Source: a virus
Lineage: Duplodnaviria; Caudoviricetes
Direction: 5' to 3' (one strand)
Length of the DNA: 64,000 nucleotides
IMG/VR virus record: IMGVR_UViG_3300037067_017580
Location: 12,860-76,859 of that record
The position numbers were made by a program, and so were the translations under genes. Below are positions 4,093-51,069 of this stretch, piece after piece (position 1 is the stretch's first letter; each line of letters starts with the position of its first letter). The notes under the pieces were generated by a model. That model searched no databases. It was not told the DNA's origin and was given only the letters and a program-made list of their open reading frames with translations.

Positions 4093-4526
4093 AATATATT
4101 AAAAAACTCTATTATAATATCAAAAACCGCTTGCGGCTATCAAACCATCTTCCATCGGGCTTCCCTGCTGGAGAATATTATGAGCCGTGCGACCTAATCC
4201 CGGCTGTTCTTTTACAGGCGGTTGAAGATTTTGTTGCCAGAGACAAACAAGACGGGCTAAAATGGTTTAGTGACAGCGAATATCGTGAAAATATAATTGA
4301 AATTTTGCATTTTAAAATTATAGAACTTCCATTATTGGAAAAAGAATTTGACGACAAAGTTACGATTCTTTATGGGGGAATGCGGCTTGAAGATTTAAAT
4401 ACAAAAAGAACTCTTGATTGGGAAATTGGAAATTTAACTCTTAACACCGTAGAATCAAAAATAAATAGGCGCAAAAAAGAAATTCTTCATATAATTATTG
4501 ATATTTATCCTTATTTATGGAGTTAG
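4086..4526 (+). CDS. Hypothetical phage protein
   Basis: Co-oriented tiling ORF. Confidence 0.6.
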   Translation: MLKYIKKLYYNIKNRLRLSNHLPSGFPAGEYYEPCDLIPAVLLQAVEDFVARDKQDGLKWFSDSEYRENIIEILHFKIIELPLLEKEFDDKVTILYGGMRLEDLNTKRTLDWEIGNLTLNTVESKINRRKKEILHIIIDIYPYLWS

Positions 4527-4532
4527 ACCATT

Positions 4533-4925
4533 ATGAAAATTGAACCAATTAGTGAATTTGAAACAAAAAACAATATTAGATTCCATTGCTACCAACAACG
4601 ACCAGAAGATTTTAAACCTGGGGCGATTTTAAAGATAAGAAACTATAATTATGAAAAAGACAGATATTTTAAAGCAGATACGGTTGATAAGGCTGGAAAA
4701 AGTTGTAGAGATTATCTAAAAAGTATATTGCCATATATTGATGCGGAGTTAAACAGACAAATAGACATAAAAATGCCAAAATATTTAATAAAACCAACTC
4801 AAAACATGATAAATAAAATACAAAAAATTATCAAAAATAATAGTAATAAATCTATTAATTTTGCATTTAAAAACACAGTAGATATTGGAACAAAAGAAAT
4901 CGTCCTTATATATCTGGAGGAATAA
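4533..4925 (+). CDS. Hypothetical protein
   Basis: Co-oriented tiling ORF. Confidence 0.55.
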   Translation: MKIEPISEFETKNNIRFHCYQQRPEDFKPGAILKIRNYNYEKDRYFKADTVDKAGKSCRDYLKSILPYIDAELNRQIDIKMPKYLIKPTQNMINKIQKIIKNNSNKSINFAFKNTVDIGTKEIVLIYLEE

Positions 4926-5016
4926 AAATGAGAACAGCAAAAAAAGAATGGTTGTTAAAAGTAATTGATCTTTTGTATAATACATGTATTGATCAAGGAG
5001 GTTTTAACTGCTTATG

Positions 5017-5052
5017 AAAATCCAACAAAATCAAAAGAAATCGGTTAAAATC
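5017..5052 (+). repeat. Four RAAATC hexamers at exact 10-bp period
   Basis: Starts at 5017, 5027, 5037, 5047. Confidence 0.75.
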
Positions 5053-5054
5053 AC

Positions 5055-5083
5055 TTGCTTTTTAACCCTAAATGTAGTATATT
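5055..5083 (+). promoter_or_regulatory. Sigma70-like promoter TTGCTT-N17-TATATT
   Basis: Directly upstream of AAGGAG RBS and ATG 5097. Confidence 0.55.
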
Positions 5084-5096
5084 TAAGGAGTGAAAG

Positions 5097-5267
5097 ATGA
5101 AAGTCATAAAGGTAACGAAAGAGTATTTCCAGACAGAGGACGAGAAGGTTTATTTCTTCGAGCCTTTGGAAAAAGAAATATCCGTTGAGGATATGCAGAA
5201 GATTGTGGACGCAAACGAAAAATTAGTTAAGGAGTTGGAAGATGGAACACGTACCATTTCCAAATAA
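5097..5267 (+). CDS. 56-aa acidic protein (MKVIKVTKEYFQTEDEKVYFFEPLEKEISVEDMQKIVDANEKLVKELEDGTRTISK), not in ORF track
   Basis: Translated by hand; AAGGAG RBS; overlaps MTase start. Confidence 0.75.
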   Translation: MKVIKVTKEYFQTEDEKVYFFEPLEKEISVEDMQKIVDANEKLVKELEDGTRTISK

Positions 5268-5787
5268 GAAGTATCAAATTATCTATGCTGATCCACCTTG
5301 GAGTTATAACGACAAAATGGCTGGACATAGTTTTAGCTTAGACCACGAATATGAAACACAGAGTAAACAGTGGATAAGTCAATTACCCGTAGGTGAATTA
5401 GCAGAAAAAGATGCCTGTTTATTTTTATGGGTAACAAGTCCACTACTTGATGAAGGTATAAAAGTTTTAGAAGATTGGGGGTTTAAGTATAAAACAATAG
5501 CGTTTGTTTGGAGTAAATACACTAAAAACGGAATATTGGTCAGTAATTTAGGAAGGTGGACAATGGGCAATGTGGAGCTTTGTCTGCTTGGTATAAAAGG
5601 TAAGCCGAATAGCTGGAGAGTTGATAAAAGCATAAAACAACTTGTTCAGGCAGAGAGAACAAAGCACAGCAAAAAACCACAAGAAGTTAGAGACAGAATA
5701 ATAAAACTTTTGGGGGATAGAAGCAGAATAGAATTATTTGCTCGGCAAAAGACAGACGGTTGGGATGTTTGGGGTAATGAAGTATGA
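5242..5787 (+). CDS. MT-A70 family N6-adenine methyltransferase
   Basis: IIYADPPW, LFLWVT, WGFKYKTIAFVW, HSKKP, RIELFAR. Confidence 0.92.
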   Translation: MEHVPFPNKKYQIIYADPPWSYNDKMAGHSFSLDHEYETQSKQWISQLPVGELAEKDACLFLWVTSPLLDEGIKVLEDWGFKYKTIAFVWSKYTKNGILVSNLGRWTMGNVELCLLGIKGKPNSWRVDKSIKQLVQAERTKHSKKPQEVRDRIIKLLGDRSRIELFARQKTDGWDVWGNEV

Positions 5788-6401
5788 AAATCTATAAAAT
5801 CACAGAAGCAAGCGAATATCTTGGGGTATCAATCAACACGCTCAAGACGCTTGCCAACAATGGAAAGATAAAGTCTTTCAAGACTACTGGTGGGCATAGG
5901 CGTTTCCGTCAGGAAGACTTAGACGCTTATATGGGAGTTGAGAAAGAAAAACAAGAAAAGTTGACTGTGATTTATGCGAGATGTTCAACCGCAAAGCAGA
6001 AAGAAAACCTTGAACGGCAAAAAGACAGGTTGAGAAAACACGCAGAAGCCAAAGGTTATAAGTATGTTTTGATTGATGAGATTGCCAGCGGAATAAACGA
6101 GAAGCGAAACGGCATACACAAGTTAATCAAAATGTGTTTTGAAGGTAAAGTTGAACGAGTTCTGATTGAATACAAAGATAGACTTGCCAGATTTGGTTAT
6201 GAATATCTTGATGCCATATTTACCAATCTTGAAATCACAGTTGAAATAATGGAAGTGAAAAACAAGAAATACGAAGAAGAATTGGCAGAGGATATTATGA
6301 AAATTCTCACTTGCTATTCGGCAAGATATTACGGTGCAAGAGGTGGTAGAAAGAAGAAAATTAAGGTTGAAAATGAACCAGTCGAATCTAATGGAATTTG
6401 A
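5784..6401 (+). CDS. tnpA: IS607-family transposase TnpA (MerR-like HTH plus serine recombinase)
   Basis: EASEYLGVSINTLK, GGHRRF, IYARCST, LERQ, EIASG, YKDRLARFG. Confidence 0.92.
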   Translation: MKIYKITEASEYLGVSINTLKTLANNGKIKSFKTTGGHRRFRQEDLDAYMGVEKEKQEKLTVIYARCSTAKQKENLERQKDRLRKHAEAKGYKYVLIDEIASGINEKRNGIHKLIKMCFEGKVERVLIEYKDRLARFGYEYLDAIFTNLEITVEIMEVKNKKYEEELAEDIMKILTCYSARYYGARGGRKKKIKVENEPVESNGI

Positions 6402-6425
6402 AAAGGAGGAGATGGAGGGTGTGTT

Positions 6426-6629
6426 TTGTGTTTAAAAAAATATACAATTAAAGAAATATTACCCTTAGTTGAAGAATATAATTCAAAATTAAAGTTTAAA
6501 TTTGAAATAAAAACAGAAAAAGGAACAATAGATTGGGGAGAAAACCAAGAATGGATAGTAATAGCAGATGAAAGCACTCCTCTTTCTGCCGCAACAATAG
6601 AATGGGCTGATATTTATATAAAAATTTAA
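6426..6629 (+). CDS. Hypothetical protein
   Basis: GGAGG-rich RBS; tiling ORF. Confidence 0.55.
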   Translation: MCLKKYTIKEILPLVEEYNSKLKFKFEIKTEKGTIDWGENQEWIVIADESTPLSAATIEWADIYIKI

Positions 6630-47213: not shown

Positions 47214-48719
47214 TTAAAAAATACTCTTTATATCATTTACAAAGAAGCAGTCCTTCTCCAGTTTTTTATATCCTCTAATAATTACCACTTCTGAACATTC
47301 TTTTTGAAGCAAAAACCTATCATTCCGAGCCTTGTCTAGTGCTTTTTGAAAAACAAGACCATTTTCGATACATCCGCTTGAGTCGCTAAATGAAATGTTC
47401 GCCATGTCTTCGCCACGTTTTGTCTTTTTGATTTTTATCTTCTCAATAATCGCGCAAACTTCAAAATTTCCTTCATCGGCCTCTACGATATCAGCACATT
47501 TATTTTTTGCCACCTTACCAAAATCATTAACCCTATTACTGGTAAGATTTATGCCAAAATACGCTCTCTCGTTAATGTCTTTAAACAAGTTGCTATCATT
47601 GTATTCATTTTTTACAAGCTTATCACACAATAAAAGAACTTCTTCTGATGGTTTTAGACGTTTCTGATCTTGAAAAATAGACAAAACAAGTGCCGACAAC
47701 GACTTATACTGGACTCCCGGATTTATGTCAATAAACTCAAACATTTTCTTTTGTTGTGCCGTAGACAATTCTTTTAATAATTTGTATTCTTCCATCATTT
47801 TTGTACGAGGAGTATTATATTCATCTAAAACACCAGCCAAAATAGCCGCCTCAACCTTAGCACTATTTGTCCCTTGTCTAGCGGCTTCGATTAAAAAATC
47901 TCTCCATGTTTTACACTCAGTAAGTTTTGATAAGGCTTTATATCCGGTTTCGCCCATTCGTTTTACGTGATTTATGCCAAAAGATATTTCATTTTCTCCC
48001 ATTATTTCAAAATCTTTATGCAAATCAAGAATCTTTGGAGGCAAAAGTTTTATATCAAAATATTTCATATCATAATAAAGTTGGCAAATCTCTTCCATCG
48101 GATCTTGTTTCATTCTGGCACACTGAAGCAAACCAAGGAAAAATGCCACTGGATAATGTGTTTTTAAATATGCTGATTTATACATATTGATTGCATAAGA
48201 ATAAGAGTGTGCCTTGTTAAACGAATAATTTCCTGATTCAATAATAATATCCATTAAATGTTCGGCATCTTCTTTTTTAACACCATTTTTAACACAGCCG
48301 TCAACAAATTTTGGCCGCAATGACTTCATCTTATCCATGTCTTTTTTGCCAATAGCTTTTCTTAATCCATCTGCTTCAATTTCTGTAAACCCTCCAAGAA
48401 CTTCTGCAATTTTAATTGTCTGTTCTTGATAAAGAATAATTCCATTTGTCGGACTTAGAACTGTTTCAAGCCGCTTATCAATATAAGAAACTTCTTTCTC
48501 TTTATTTCTAACCGCAATATATTCATCTGCCTGTTGAAGAGCACCGGGGCGAATAATCGCAATAACGTCTGAAAGATCAGATATATTTCTAGGCTTAATC
48601 ATTTTAATATAATGCTGGCACAAAGACGATTCAGCCTGAAAAATACCCTTGGTCTTTCCTTCACTAATTAATTCATATGTTTCTTTATCGTCTAATGGAA
48701 TATTGTCAAGATTAAACAA
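47214..48719 (-). CDS. dnaE: DNA polymerase III alpha, C-terminal half (fingers, beta-binding, OB fold)
   Basis: IPLDD, GIFQAES, AIIRPG, ILYQEQ, LRKAIGKK, YSFNKAH, YLKTHYP. Confidence 0.93.
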   Translation of the reverse strand: MFNLDNIPLDDKETYELISEGKTKGIFQAESSLCQHYIKMIKPRNISDLSDVIAIIRPGALQQADEYIAVRNKEKEVSYIDKRLETVLSPTNGIILYQEQTIKIAEVLGGFTEIEADGLRKAIGKKDMDKMKSLRPKFVDGCVKNGVKKEDAEHLMDIIIESGNYSFNKAHSYSYAINMYKSAYLKTHYPVAFFLGLLQCARMKQDPMEEICQLYYDMKYFDIKLLPPKILDLHKDFEIMGENEISFGINHVKRMGETGYKALSKLTECKTWRDFLIEAARQGTNSAKVEAAILAGVLDEYNTPRTKMMEEYKLLKELSTAQQKKMFEFIDINPGVQYKSLSALVLSIFQDQKRLKPSEEVLLLCDKLVKNEYNDSNLFKDINERAYFGINLTSNRVNDFGKVAKNKCADIVEADEGNFEVCAIIEKIKIKKTKRGEDMANISFSDSSGCIENGLVFQKALDKARNDRFLLQKECSEVVIIRGYKKLEKDCFFVNDIKSIF

Positions 48720-48720
48720 A

Positions 48721-51069
48721 TTATTTACTTCCTAGAGTGATTTTTCCATTTTCAAATTTACCATACTTAACAGCGTGATTCATAATATCTGTCTTTGGCT
48801 TTCCAATCTCCTTGGGATTAATTTTATAAATATCTCCAGTTTCTTTTATTAGGGCAATAATATTATAATCAGCACCATCATCCATATAATACTTAATATA
48901 AGAAACCACTGTTAGATATTTAATTACTTCTGGAGTTCTTGTATGTTCTCCATAATCAAATAATTTGTAAATATCATCAAGAATAAGAGAACATGTAGTT
49001 CCTTTCGCATTAGCAAACTTTACATACTCGCAATCTTTTTTCTTAATAATATCAAGTTTTTCATGTTTGAATTTGCTAAGAAAATCTACAAAACATTCTG
49101 AACTAAATTCCATTTTTTTCTCCTGTATAAAATTAACTGGCACATCCTGTATTTCATCAATAAGTGTTTCTTCTACTATTTCTCCCGTTATCGACTCTTT
49201 TGGATAATATAAAACATCTTTCTTTGGGATATATTTTAATGGCTTTATCTTCCGTCGATTTATCTCTCTCTGTACTATATCAAAAACCGAGAGCAATTTC
49301 AAGCCCAAAATATCTATTTTTACGCAAAAACATTCAGAATCTTTCATATCGAAGGCACAAACAAGACTTTTACTTTTGGCATCCCATTCCAGCGGCAAGT
49401 ATTCATCCACATCTGTTGAAGAAATAAGAACGCCAGCGGCATGAATACCTTTGTTTCTTACCGTTCCCTCAATAGCCTTGGCAAGCTCTATCTCTTTCTT
49501 GTATGGTTCAAAAGCCGTTCTAAACTCTTCTGAAATATCTAGTGCGCCCTGAATGGTGTTTTCTGTGTCGTCATCATGCTTTATTTCTTGATCGGGGAAC
49601 ATTTTAGTCAATACGTTTGACTGCTCAAAAGGGACTCCACAAACCCTAAAAGTGTCTTTAATAGCCGATTTTGGCTTGAGTTCTCCAAATGTACTAATGG
49701 GAAGAACTTTATTATCACCCCATTTTTCTTTAAGATGCTTAATAACATCATCTTTTATGTCGGCACTAACGTCTAAATCTACGTCGGGGAGAGAAATATG
49801 TCCCTCTGATAAACGACCAGTATTAAAGAATCTTTGAAAAGACAACTGTGTTTCTATAGGGTCAATACGTGTTATCCCTAGTAAATACGAAACCAAGCTG
49901 CCTGCTGCGCTACCACGACCAACTCCGGGAATACTTCCTGCCTTCTTTACAAAGTCAACAATGTCTAAAAGAAGAGCGAAATATGCATTAAGAGTTGTTC
50001 CGCTTACTTTTGCATTCTTAAATGTTTCATACTCAAAGTTTAATCTATCAATATACTCTTTATCTTTATGTTTTTTAAGTTCTTTAAGTTTTATCAAACA
50101 TAGATCATACACGTACTCGTCAACATTTGTATATTTTTCTGGAACAACGATTTGTGGAATCTTAGGAGAACCAAGCTCTATCTCATAATTTTCTACTTTT
50201 TCTGACATTAAAAACGTATTATTTATTTCTTCTTGCGCAAATTTCTCAAACATTTCCTCATAGCTATGCATATAATATTGAGAATTATCAGAAAAAAGAA
50301 TATCTTCGCCGGAAGCTTTTCTATTCGCCCGTTCTGCCAAGGTGGTTTTTGTCTGTGTACAAATCATTACTTCATGTGCAATTGCGTCTTCTGGTCGGCT
50401 AAAATGTGAGTCACAACTCGCACAGAGAGGAATTCCAGTCTGTTTCGATATCTCTCTAAAACATGACAAAACTACTACTTGCGCCGGATGACCTTCAATC
50501 ATTGCTTCAAGATAAAAATCATCTCCAAATATGCTCTTCCACCTATTTGCTTCTAGACACCCAGCTTCTAACCAGTTATCTTTTAAAAACTTACGACAAT
50601 TTTCTTCATCTATTTGTGAAAATGCTTCCTTATAATTAGTAAATAATTCAGTAGACACCCTCCCTATGATGCAGGCTCCGCAAGCAATAATGTTCTTATT
50701 TTTTGCTACTTCGGCAATTTTATCAAAGGTAAGACGGGGTTTAAAATAGAAGTTTTTTGCTGCAAAATTATTTAATTTTATTAAATCTTTATATCCGTTA
50801 TAGTTTTTTGCAATAATAATAATGTGGTTATTGCTTCTTTCTCCTTCGACCTCGTTGCCAAGATAAAACTCGCAACCAATCATCGGCTTAATATTTTTTT
50901 CTTTACAGGCACGATAAAACTTGATAATTCCAGATAAAGAACCATGATCGGAAATTCCAACTGTCTTCATGCCAAGTTCAACAGCGCGAGAAACAATATC
51001 TTTTGGGGATTGTAGTCCGTCTAAGATACTATAATATGAGTGGTTATGAAATAAAGTAAAATTATTCAT
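48721..51069 (-). CDS. dnaE: DNA polymerase III alpha, N-terminal half (PHP plus palm) with about 155-aa unrelated tail
   Basis: HNHSYYSILDG, DHG, GRGSAAGS, FQRF, LPDVDLD, HAAGV, KIDILGL. Confidence 0.93.
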   Translation of the reverse strand: MNNFTLFHNHSYYSILDGLQSPKDIVSRAVELGMKTVGISDHGSLSGIIKFYRACKEKNIKPMIGCEFYLGNEVEGERSNNHIIIIAKNYNGYKDLIKLNNFAAKNFYFKPRLTFDKIAEVAKNKNIIACGACIIGRVSTELFTNYKEAFSQIDEENCRKFLKDNWLEAGCLEANRWKSIFGDDFYLEAMIEGHPAQVVVLSCFREISKQTGIPLCASCDSHFSRPEDAIAHEVMICTQTKTTLAERANRKASGEDILFSDNSQYYMHSYEEMFEKFAQEEINNTFLMSEKVENYEIELGSPKIPQIVVPEKYTNVDEYVYDLCLIKLKELKKHKDKEYIDRLNFEYETFKNAKVSGTTLNAYFALLLDIVDFVKKAGSIPGVGRGSAAGSLVSYLLGITRIDPIETQLSFQRFFNTGRLSEGHISLPDVDLDVSADIKDDVIKHLKEKWGDNKVLPISTFGELKPKSAIKDTFRVCGVPFEQSNVLTKMFPDQEIKHDDDTENTIQGALDISEEFRTAFEPYKKEIELAKAIEGTVRNKGIHAAGVLISSTDVDEYLPLEWDAKSKSLVCAFDMKDSECFCVKIDILGLKLLSVFDIVQREINRRKIKPLKYIPKKDVLYYPKESITGEIVEETLIDEIQDVPVNFIQEKKMEFSSECFVDFLSKFKHEKLDIIKKKDCEYVKFANAKGTTCSLILDDIYKLFDYGEHTRTPEVIKYLTVVSYIKYYMDDGADYNIIALIKETGDIYKINPKEIGKPKTDIMNHAVKYGKFENGKITLGSK

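Follow-up and report, generated by a model that had tools for sequence, protein, structure and literature searches.

Insertion elements of the IS607 family need only tnpA for transposition, possess no inverted repeats, induce no target duplications and insert at GG (PMC6188088). In IS1535, dimers of TnpA coat subterminal motifs a–d, which lie at bp 21–54 of the left end in units of ∼10 bp (PMC6188088). The element described here resides in IMGVR_UViG_3300037067_017580, a 76.9-kb viral contig of IMG/VR that is ∼45% complete. A stretch of 64,000 nt of this contig was analysed (the window), and coordinates are window positions unless a locus is named. The element is 1.4 kb long, extends from 5000 to 6407, is bounded by GA dinucleotides and is found once in its contig. 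It is an IS607-family transposon with a new architecture, a new choice of target and a new role for its cargo; literature searches returned no description of such elements. Judged from its sequence and from comparison with its relatives, it appears, at a probability of roughly 85%, to be structurally complete and probably active, and to belong to a large family of cargo transposons that derive from IS607 and reside in phage genomes.

From left to right, the element consists of a terminal motif, four RAAATC repeats, a promoter, a small gene (orf56), an MT-A70 methyltransferase gene as cargo and the gene of an IS607-type serine transposase, tnpA (Table 1). The genes overlap, orf56 and the methyltransferase gene by 26 nt and the methyltransferase gene and tnpA by 4 nt (ATGA), and the frame without its cargo measures ∼0.85 kb. 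An initial annotation of this DNA had listed the hexamers, the promoter, the 56-amino-acid open reading frame (ORF), the methyltransferase, TnpA, the overlaps and the absence of tnpB, and it was right in each of these. The core content it enclosed between 5017 and 6401 stands as well, but the limits do not: they omit the terminal motif and the right-end tail and are corrected here to 5000–6407.

The element and IS607, IS1535, ISC1926 and ISC1904 (PMC6188088) have in common a transposase with a MerR-like winged helix and a C-terminal catalytic serine domain. As in classical IS607 elements, terminal inverted repeats and target duplication are absent, direct repeats spaced at ∼10 bp are found 20–55 bp from the left end, and tnpA adjoins the right-hand part of the element. 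Unlike classical elements, it has no tnpB, separates its left end from tnpA by a promoter, the conserved 56-amino-acid gene and a cargo slot, has a right end that overlaps the tnpA stop codon, and would cross over at GA and not at GG. Targets differ as well: IS607 prefers (G)GG with no further pattern, whereas the family of the window element strongly prefers AAGGAGG.

Relatives among known phages are distant. Compared with IS607-family TnpAs of deposited phage records, the window TnpA reaches only ∼32–37% identity. All IS607-type TnpAs in deposited phage genomes are such distant ones (<37% identity), often accompanied by tnpB, and a nucleotide-level search of deposited phages gave no similar DNA. 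The IS607 tnpA–tnpB elements of cultured phages (Helicobacter phage KHP30T and Nodularia and Campylobacter phages) are likewise phage-resident elements with a serine transposase, but they have TnpB or no recognised passenger gene, and their TnpAs belong to distant clades (<37%).

Conserved modules, borders and transposase

A scan of viral contigs with TnpA returned at least 120 relatives, of which 80, with 77–99% identity, were kept. DNA similarity to these 80 forms two sharp-edged blocks, 4995/4998–5242/5247 and 5784–6407/6409. In alignments of the left junctions, unrelated DNA runs up to (G)GA and is followed by GGTTnTAACTGCTT and the repeats; at the right junctions, ...GGAATTTRAAAAGGA is followed by unrelated DNA that most often starts with GG. 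None of the eight ORFs flanking the element in the window is common to any of the 80 relatives. The family has so far been found in viral contigs and in contigs of metagenome-assembled genomes (MAGs), and the sources of the carrier contigs are groundwater, landfill, soil, sediment and digester samples. The copies on MAG contigs, 19 in a genome collection and assigned to many phyla, probably represent phage or prophage DNA that was binned with these MAGs. The summed depth of the two conserved modules is 10–100 times that of the window flanks in three metagenome studies, where contigs also break at the module borders.

That the block is a conserved phage module spread by homologous recombination, and not a transposon, is very improbable. 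Phage genomes are indeed mosaic, and cargo is probably exchanged between elements through homologous recombination in the orf56 and tnpA blocks. The flanks, however, have no similarity able to support homologous exchange, the borders are precise to the base and always lie at an AAG-GA-GG-like site, and empty and filled alleles, presented below, differ by exactly the element. The block also encodes a transposase of a family in which tnpA alone suffices (PMC6188088).

The tnpA product displays a helix-turn-helix (HTH) domain, HTH_17/MerR, at residues 4–50 and a Resolvase domain at residues 62–181 (Pfam). Its best match among solved structures is the catalytic domain of ISC1926 TnpA (6dgc, E 2e-30), and MJ0014, ISC1904 and IS1535 (6dgb) are matched as well. 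The catalytic motif YARCST aligns to YARVSS of ISC1926, and Ser68 is invariant in 31 family members. The order of MerR-like HTH and catalytic domain, the YAR-x-S serine, the lack of terminal inverted repeats and the lack of target duplication are all those of IS607. The usual IS607 tnpB downstream of tnpA is not found: the right end overlaps the tnpA stop codon, no tnpB adjoins the element, and the flanks of the window element and of its relatives diverge directly after 6407, from 6408 on. The initial annotation had pointed out that a tnpB adjacent to the element in close relatives would mean a simple deletion. Similarity stops right after tnpA in 53 independent right junctions, four out of the five carrier phage contigs that are long or near-complete have no TnpB domain, and the contig's own TnpB, searched against 174 loci, gave no match. 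Loss of tnpB by simple deletion was rejected, as the relatives show no trace of the gene.

The TnpB used in that search is a lone protein of 398 amino acids (OrfB_IS605 and a Cas12f1-like TNB domain), encoded outside the window on the minus strand (G000:C1, ∼4423–5619; locus L145:1393–2589), ∼13 kb from the element and with no recognisable TnpA beside it. At another locus, L023, a TnpB-like frame of 416 amino acids is found in the left flank (∼2735–2935), ∼0.9 kb before the left end; tnpA of L023 (5001–5156) has a premature stop after 52 codons. A further observation concerns a 58.6-kb contig whose ends are the loci L070 and L071: left flank and element are present there twice, over 4165 bp with 99.95% identity, and the copies diverge exactly past the right end.

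Table 1. Features of the element and its immediate flanks (window positions)
Feature	Positions	Strand	Basis or remark
Putative left crossover dinucleotide GA	4998–4999	+	common to target; L053 alleles and 55 left junctions
Left-end terminal motif GGTTTTAACTGCTT	5000–5013	+	kept in 52 distinct left ends
Four direct RAAATC repeats	5017–5052	+	10-bp period, 18–53 bp from element end
Promoter, -35 TTGCTT (5055–5060) and -10 TATATT (5078–5083)	5055–5083	+	hexamer conservation
orf56, 56 amino acids	5097–5267	+	dN/dS 0.09
AAGGAG, spacer and ATG; end of conserved left module	5229–5244	+	similarity edge at 5242–5247 in most relatives
Cargo, MT-A70-family N6-adenine DNA methyltransferase, 181 amino acids	5242–5787	+	PF05063, phrog_359
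tnpA, IS607-family serine transposase, 205 amino acids	5784–6401	+	Pfam and PDB matches
Internal copy of left-end repeat pair at tnpA start	5784–5802	+	ATGAAAATC, 3 bases, AAAATCA
Right end, with tail AAAAGGA (6401–6407) and putative crossover GA (6406–6407)	6375–6407	+	junction logo, synonymous constraint
ORF of 29 amino acids, left flank into element	4928–5017	+	possible N-terminal stump of split target gene
ORF of 67 amino acids, right flank	6426–6629	+	possible C-terminal part of same split gene

Element ends, crossover and target

The initial annotation had named empty-site alleles as a check, and these exist in the lineage of locus L053, for which they are direct evidence of mobility. 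Probing with a terminase-like gene situated to the right of the element recovered nine contigs of one phage from different metagenomes, with 99% identity; two contain the element and seven have an empty site. The empty site reads ...CATAGAAGGACCTAAGTAATG (core ...GAAGGACCTAAG...). In the filled site, ...CATAGAAGGA is joined to GGTTGTAAC... on the left, and ...TTTAAAAAGGA to CCTAAGTAATG on the right. The junctions have only AAGGA in common, and there is no target duplication. As the leading GG of the terminal motif GGTTTTAACTGCTT is absent from the empty site, this GG is part of the element. At other loci too, the sequence that precedes the left junction does not recur at the right one, e.g., TTCGA on the left and AAGGA on the right at L018.

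Two other border assignments were ruled out, a 5-bp target duplication because the right-end tail does not change with the left flank, and a GG crossover at 5000–5001 by the empty site of the L053 lineage. For the GG at 4997–4998, position 4997 is other than G in 10 of 55 lineages. By comparison, 55 independent left junctions have G in 52 cases and A in all 55, and 53 independent right junctions have G in all 53 and A in 52; other flank positions are merely preferred and not near-invariant. The simplest reading of these junctions is a 2-bp crossover at GA within AAGGA.

The target logo from the same junctions is AAG-GA-GG, the middle dinucleotide being the putative crossover, and is Shine-Dalgarno-like. 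The predicted joined ends of an excised element, AAAAG-GA-GGTT, display the same pattern. This resemblance would explain the target preference as a likeness of the two recombining sites. In 26 of the 53 independent insertions, the start codon of an ORF of at least 40 amino acids lies 3–12 nt past GGAGG, and in these the element to all appearances occupies a working ribosome-binding site and rebuilds it.

Intragenic insertions also occur. At L057 (1511–2862) and L058 (4272–5623), an N6/N4 DNA methylase gene is interrupted; the right flank there encodes the C-terminal part of the methylase, and the cargo of the element consists of 158 amino acids with no assigned family. In the window, deletion of 5000–6407 fuses the 29-amino-acid and the 67-amino-acid flanking ORFs in frame to form an uninterrupted ORF of 97 amino acids, which suggests that the target was a gene now split by the element. 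Searches with the right-flank ORF found no homologue but itself, and viral contigs contain no relatives of the left-flank protein.

At the left end, RAAATC hexamers begin at 5017, 5027, 5037 and 5047, an exact 10-bp spacing. The paired hexamer pattern is confined to this site in the window, with three overlapping matches vs 0.36 expected from shuffles. The four repeats are the presumed binding sites of the winged-helix domain of TnpA. The promoter that follows has a spacer of 17 nt. A simple consensus promoter scan did not list it, as its -35 hexamer matches only 3 of 6 positions; it is accepted because both hexamers are conserved across 52 distinct left ends, in which the spacer has diverged. 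A conserved leader ORF at 5014–5100 was considered and rejected, the ATG being missing in several clades.

Helix-phased A-tracts bend DNA and are often found upstream of -35 elements. The repeats might accordingly be curved A-tract DNA, or the operator of another regulator acting on the promoter, and not transposase sites. The fourth repeat does stop 2 nt before the -35 hexamer, and diverged left ends keep the A-runs while the TC part varies (AAAACC, AATATC, AAAAAC). This alternative is nevertheless unlikely. The location of the repeats, their number and their 10-bp spacing match the TnpA-bound motifs of IS1535, related GAATC and GAATT motifs lie 10 bp apart in the right end under synonymous-site constraint, and the repeat pair is also kept at the start of tnpA. 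Bending of DNA and binding of TnpA are, moreover, compatible with each other. With binding of TnpA as the preferred role, end-bound TnpA could regulate its own operon, given that the promoter abuts the fourth repeat.

The right end overlaps the last codons of tnpA and contains the motifs GAACC, GAATC and GAATT, spaced at 9–10 bp and followed by AAAAGGA. Synonymous-site entropy has its minimum here, at tnpA codons 197–204 (0.30 vs 0.5–0.8 elsewhere in the gene). The subterminal direct repeats are conserved at the left end and weaker at the right, and a repeat search found no inverted pair joining 5000–5060 and 6375–6407. A third site resembles the ends: ATGAAAATC, 3–4 bases and AAAATCA follow each other both at the left end, from 5014, and at the start of tnpA, from 5784, a pattern absent elsewhere in the window (0 expected). 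This suggests an ancestral element in which tnpA started at the left end and into which the promoter, orf56 and the slot were inserted.

orf56, the cargo slot and cargo turnover

The 56-amino-acid frame is a real gene. The median ratio of nonsynonymous to synonymous substitution rates (dN/dS) is 0.09 over 699 pairs, which indicates strong purifying selection. GGAG precedes orf56, and its last codons contain the ribosome-binding site and ATG of the cargo. An AlphaFold model (mean predicted local distance difference test score, pLDDT, 89.7) shows three short strands and one long helix; no Pfam or PHROG family and no fold match in PDB or BFVD were found. The product may be a regulator, a transposition cofactor or a coupling leader.

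Retrieval with orf56 gave 37 loci with a full tnpA, several with only the HTH part of TnpA (residues 1 to ∼51–64), and 13 that keep the left end, orf56 and cargo and are without tnpA or right end. Decay thus tends to remove the transposase and to spare the expression unit. The HTH-only form could represent decay or a retained regulator. Individual cases are L265, L286, L310, L313 and L336, where tnpA is truncated after residues 51–64, ∼700–1500 nt past orf56, and only the HTH is left.

The initial annotation had proposed that a fixed small ORF and tnpA enclose a passenger slot, to be recognised by listing the genes between the two; a fixed gene set with no empty sites would have spoken against it. 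The proposal holds: orf56 and TnpA travel together across unrelated contexts, the intervening stretch varies, diverse cargos are found and empty sites exist. In 63 loci with both genes, the interval between orf56 and tnpA measures ∼430–1850 bp and usually consists of one plus-strand ORF, which starts at or near the ATG within the last orf56 codons. The cargo stop lies 4 nt into tnpA in 28 loci and 14 nt into it in 23. The first tnpA codons, ATGAAAATCTATAA, contain a TGA and a TAA, one in each of the two alternative reading frames, and the frame of the element thus supplies the stop codon of the cargo besides its ribosome-binding site and ATG.

When cargos of these 63 loci were clustered, N6/N4 methylases and MT-A70 proteins were found in 14 loci each (the window included in the latter), C5 methylases and PAPS-reductase-like proteins in nine each, Mom and phrog_757 methylases in three each, D12 methylases in two and Dam in one. 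The class is given as unknown in two loci, and six, mainly of the 77–79% TnpA clade, have several small ORFs in the slot. The family identifiers of the cargos are PF01555, PF05063, PF00145, PF01507, PF25680, PF02086, PF05869 and phrog_757. A tnpA tree was built for 59 elements, with one or two fewer per cargo class than in the 63-locus set, and ∼87% of the 59 classified cargos of this tree set are recognised DNA-modification enzymes. The PAPS-reductase-like cargos are counted among these, since DndC is a member of that family. MT-A70, Dam, D12, N6/N4, C5 and Mom are families that phages use to modify their own DNA. Unlike orphan phage methyltransferases or Mom, the cargos here ride on a dedicated transposon, with their native ends trimmed and their start and stop signals borrowed.

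The window cargo matches the MT-A70 model PF05063 over its full length (1–172 of 172, E 5e-29) and phrog_359, and has the DPPW motif (YADPPWSY). It is 56–85% identical to ∼30 free-standing phage genes that have neither orf56 nor tnpA in their vicinity, vs at most 55% to MT-A70 cargos of sister elements. Compared with the free-standing genes, the cargo is without the native C-terminal tail, and its first few codons are altered. The greater nearness to free-standing genes than to sister cargos points to independent capture, and together these comparisons indicate that genes of the phage pool have been captured, and trimmed, repeatedly and independently. The methyltransferase most likely protects the phage DNA from host restriction, and the preponderance of DNA-modification enzymes among the classified cargos strengthens this assignment. 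A free-standing MT-A70 gene at L148:1483–2070, 83% identical to the window cargo, is followed by ATGAATATCTATAAGATAATC, which resembles a relic of the tnpA start; an element, since decayed, may have brought this gene to its site.

On the tnpA tree, cargo class changes at least 28 times, where the minimum possible is nine and the shuffled mean 39. Well-supported branches alone force eight changes for MT-A70. The nearest relative of the window element, L003, with 95% DNA identity in tnpA, is resident in another phage and holds an N6/N4 methylase. Two pairs of contigs, L033/L034 and L047/L048, are identical rightwards from the tnpA ATG (as in L033/L034) or from the cargo start, and differ in cargo, left module and left flank. 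They represent either recombination exactly at module borders or assembly chimeras.

Integron cassettes, including those reported in phages (PMC9892861), offer a functional analogy only, in that a fixed promoter-bearing platform expresses one exchangeable promoter-less gene out of a varied pool. Unlike integrons, the window element has no tyrosine integrase (IntI), attC or attI, the whole platform is mobile, and there is usually one slot and no array; the sole recombinase is of the serine type, and the slot borders have no attC-like inverted repeats. A more far-reaching version of the analogy would have the slot borders act as recombination sites, at which TnpA, perhaps with the 56-amino-acid protein, swaps or captures modification genes site-specifically and not through accidental recombination. 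The AAGGAG at the end of orf56 does resemble the target and the right end, and the tnpA start repeats the first two left-end motifs. An integron-like capture platform of this kind is doubtful. If it did exist, it would be a dedicated phage system that acquires anti-restriction genes and installs them at ribosome-binding sites.

Proposed mechanism and present-day activity

The following scheme is proposed for the element as a cargo transposon. TnpA would coat the four phased RAAATC repeats on the left and the GAATC/GAATT repeats on the right by way of its winged-helix domain, pair both ends and swap strands at the GA dinucleotide. The element would land on a Shine-Dalgarno-like AAG-GA-GG, co-oriented with the downstream gene, with no target duplication and with the ribosome-binding site of that gene rebuilt. 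The promoter inside the left end may then drive an orf56–cargo–tnpA operon, in which the cargo would obtain its ribosome-binding site and ATG from the left module and its stop codon from the first tnpA codons. The slot would be occupied by one DNA-modification gene, here an MT-A70 gene that most likely guards the DNA of the carrier phage, and this benefit would retain the element in the phage. Cargos would often be swapped between elements and captured anew from ordinary phage genes. The sequences directly show the anatomy, the sharp borders, unrelated flanks, empty and filled alleles, the lack of duplication, the target logo, the diversity and turnover of cargo and the family to which TnpA belongs. 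That TnpA binds the repeats, that the crossover is exactly at GA, that the element is active today and that its cargo is of benefit against restriction is what we infer.

Several observations weigh against a complete and probably active transposon of this design. In addition to binding TnpA or in place of it, the phased A-rich repeats could bend the DNA in aid of the adjacent promoter. The GA crossover, derived from junction statistics, is unlike the GG of IS607, and four lineages deviate at one of its two positions. Metagenome assemblies may mis-join repeats, and some apparent cargo swaps, such as L033 vs L034, are possibly chimeras; the overall turnover pattern is independent of single cases of this kind. 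For the window copy, no empty allele, excision product or circle junction was found in viral and metagenome contigs: contigs of four runs have no joint across the element, and neither the predicted empty-site sequence, as an exact match, nor the circle or tandem junction pattern is present in metagenome contigs. Flank searches for the L006 and L041 lineages likewise returned filled sites only. In run X1, the depth of the cargo equals that of the flanks, and the window copy looks fixed in that population.

The window copy might on these grounds be an immobile relic of a formerly mobile family, kept as a methyltransferase expression unit, with tnpA heading to decay. Many relatives have decayed, as seen in the 13 loci without tnpA or right end, the several that retain TnpA residues 1 to ∼51–64 only, and the premature tnpA stop of L023; the equal depth in X1 and the lack of an empty allele would agree with this. 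All parts of the window copy are nevertheless intact (the terminal motif, the four repeats, the promoter, orf56, a 205-amino-acid TnpA with its invariant residues, and the right end), and its tnpA is 95% identical in DNA to that of L003 in another phage. A relic is thus rather unlikely, and a probably active element remains the preferred reading.

DNA-modification genes are the main passive defence of phages against restriction. An element of this type would give phages that infect very different hosts a concrete means of acquiring, expressing and exchanging such genes. A serine transposase aimed at ribosome-binding sites, which it rebuilds, would have a way of entering compact genomes without silencing genes. 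The element can also be viewed as a natural expression cassette that is small, encodes one protein for its own movement, is scarless and has a built-in promoter, start signal and stops, and it is a possible tool.

The replication set of the host contig is T4-like and comprises a split family-B DNA polymerase, a DnaB-like helicase, UvsX and an RNA ligase. The polymerase is encoded on the minus strand of the window by two adjacent ORFs, at 47214–48719 and 48721–51069, with products of 782 and 501 amino acids that match consecutive parts of phrog_405.

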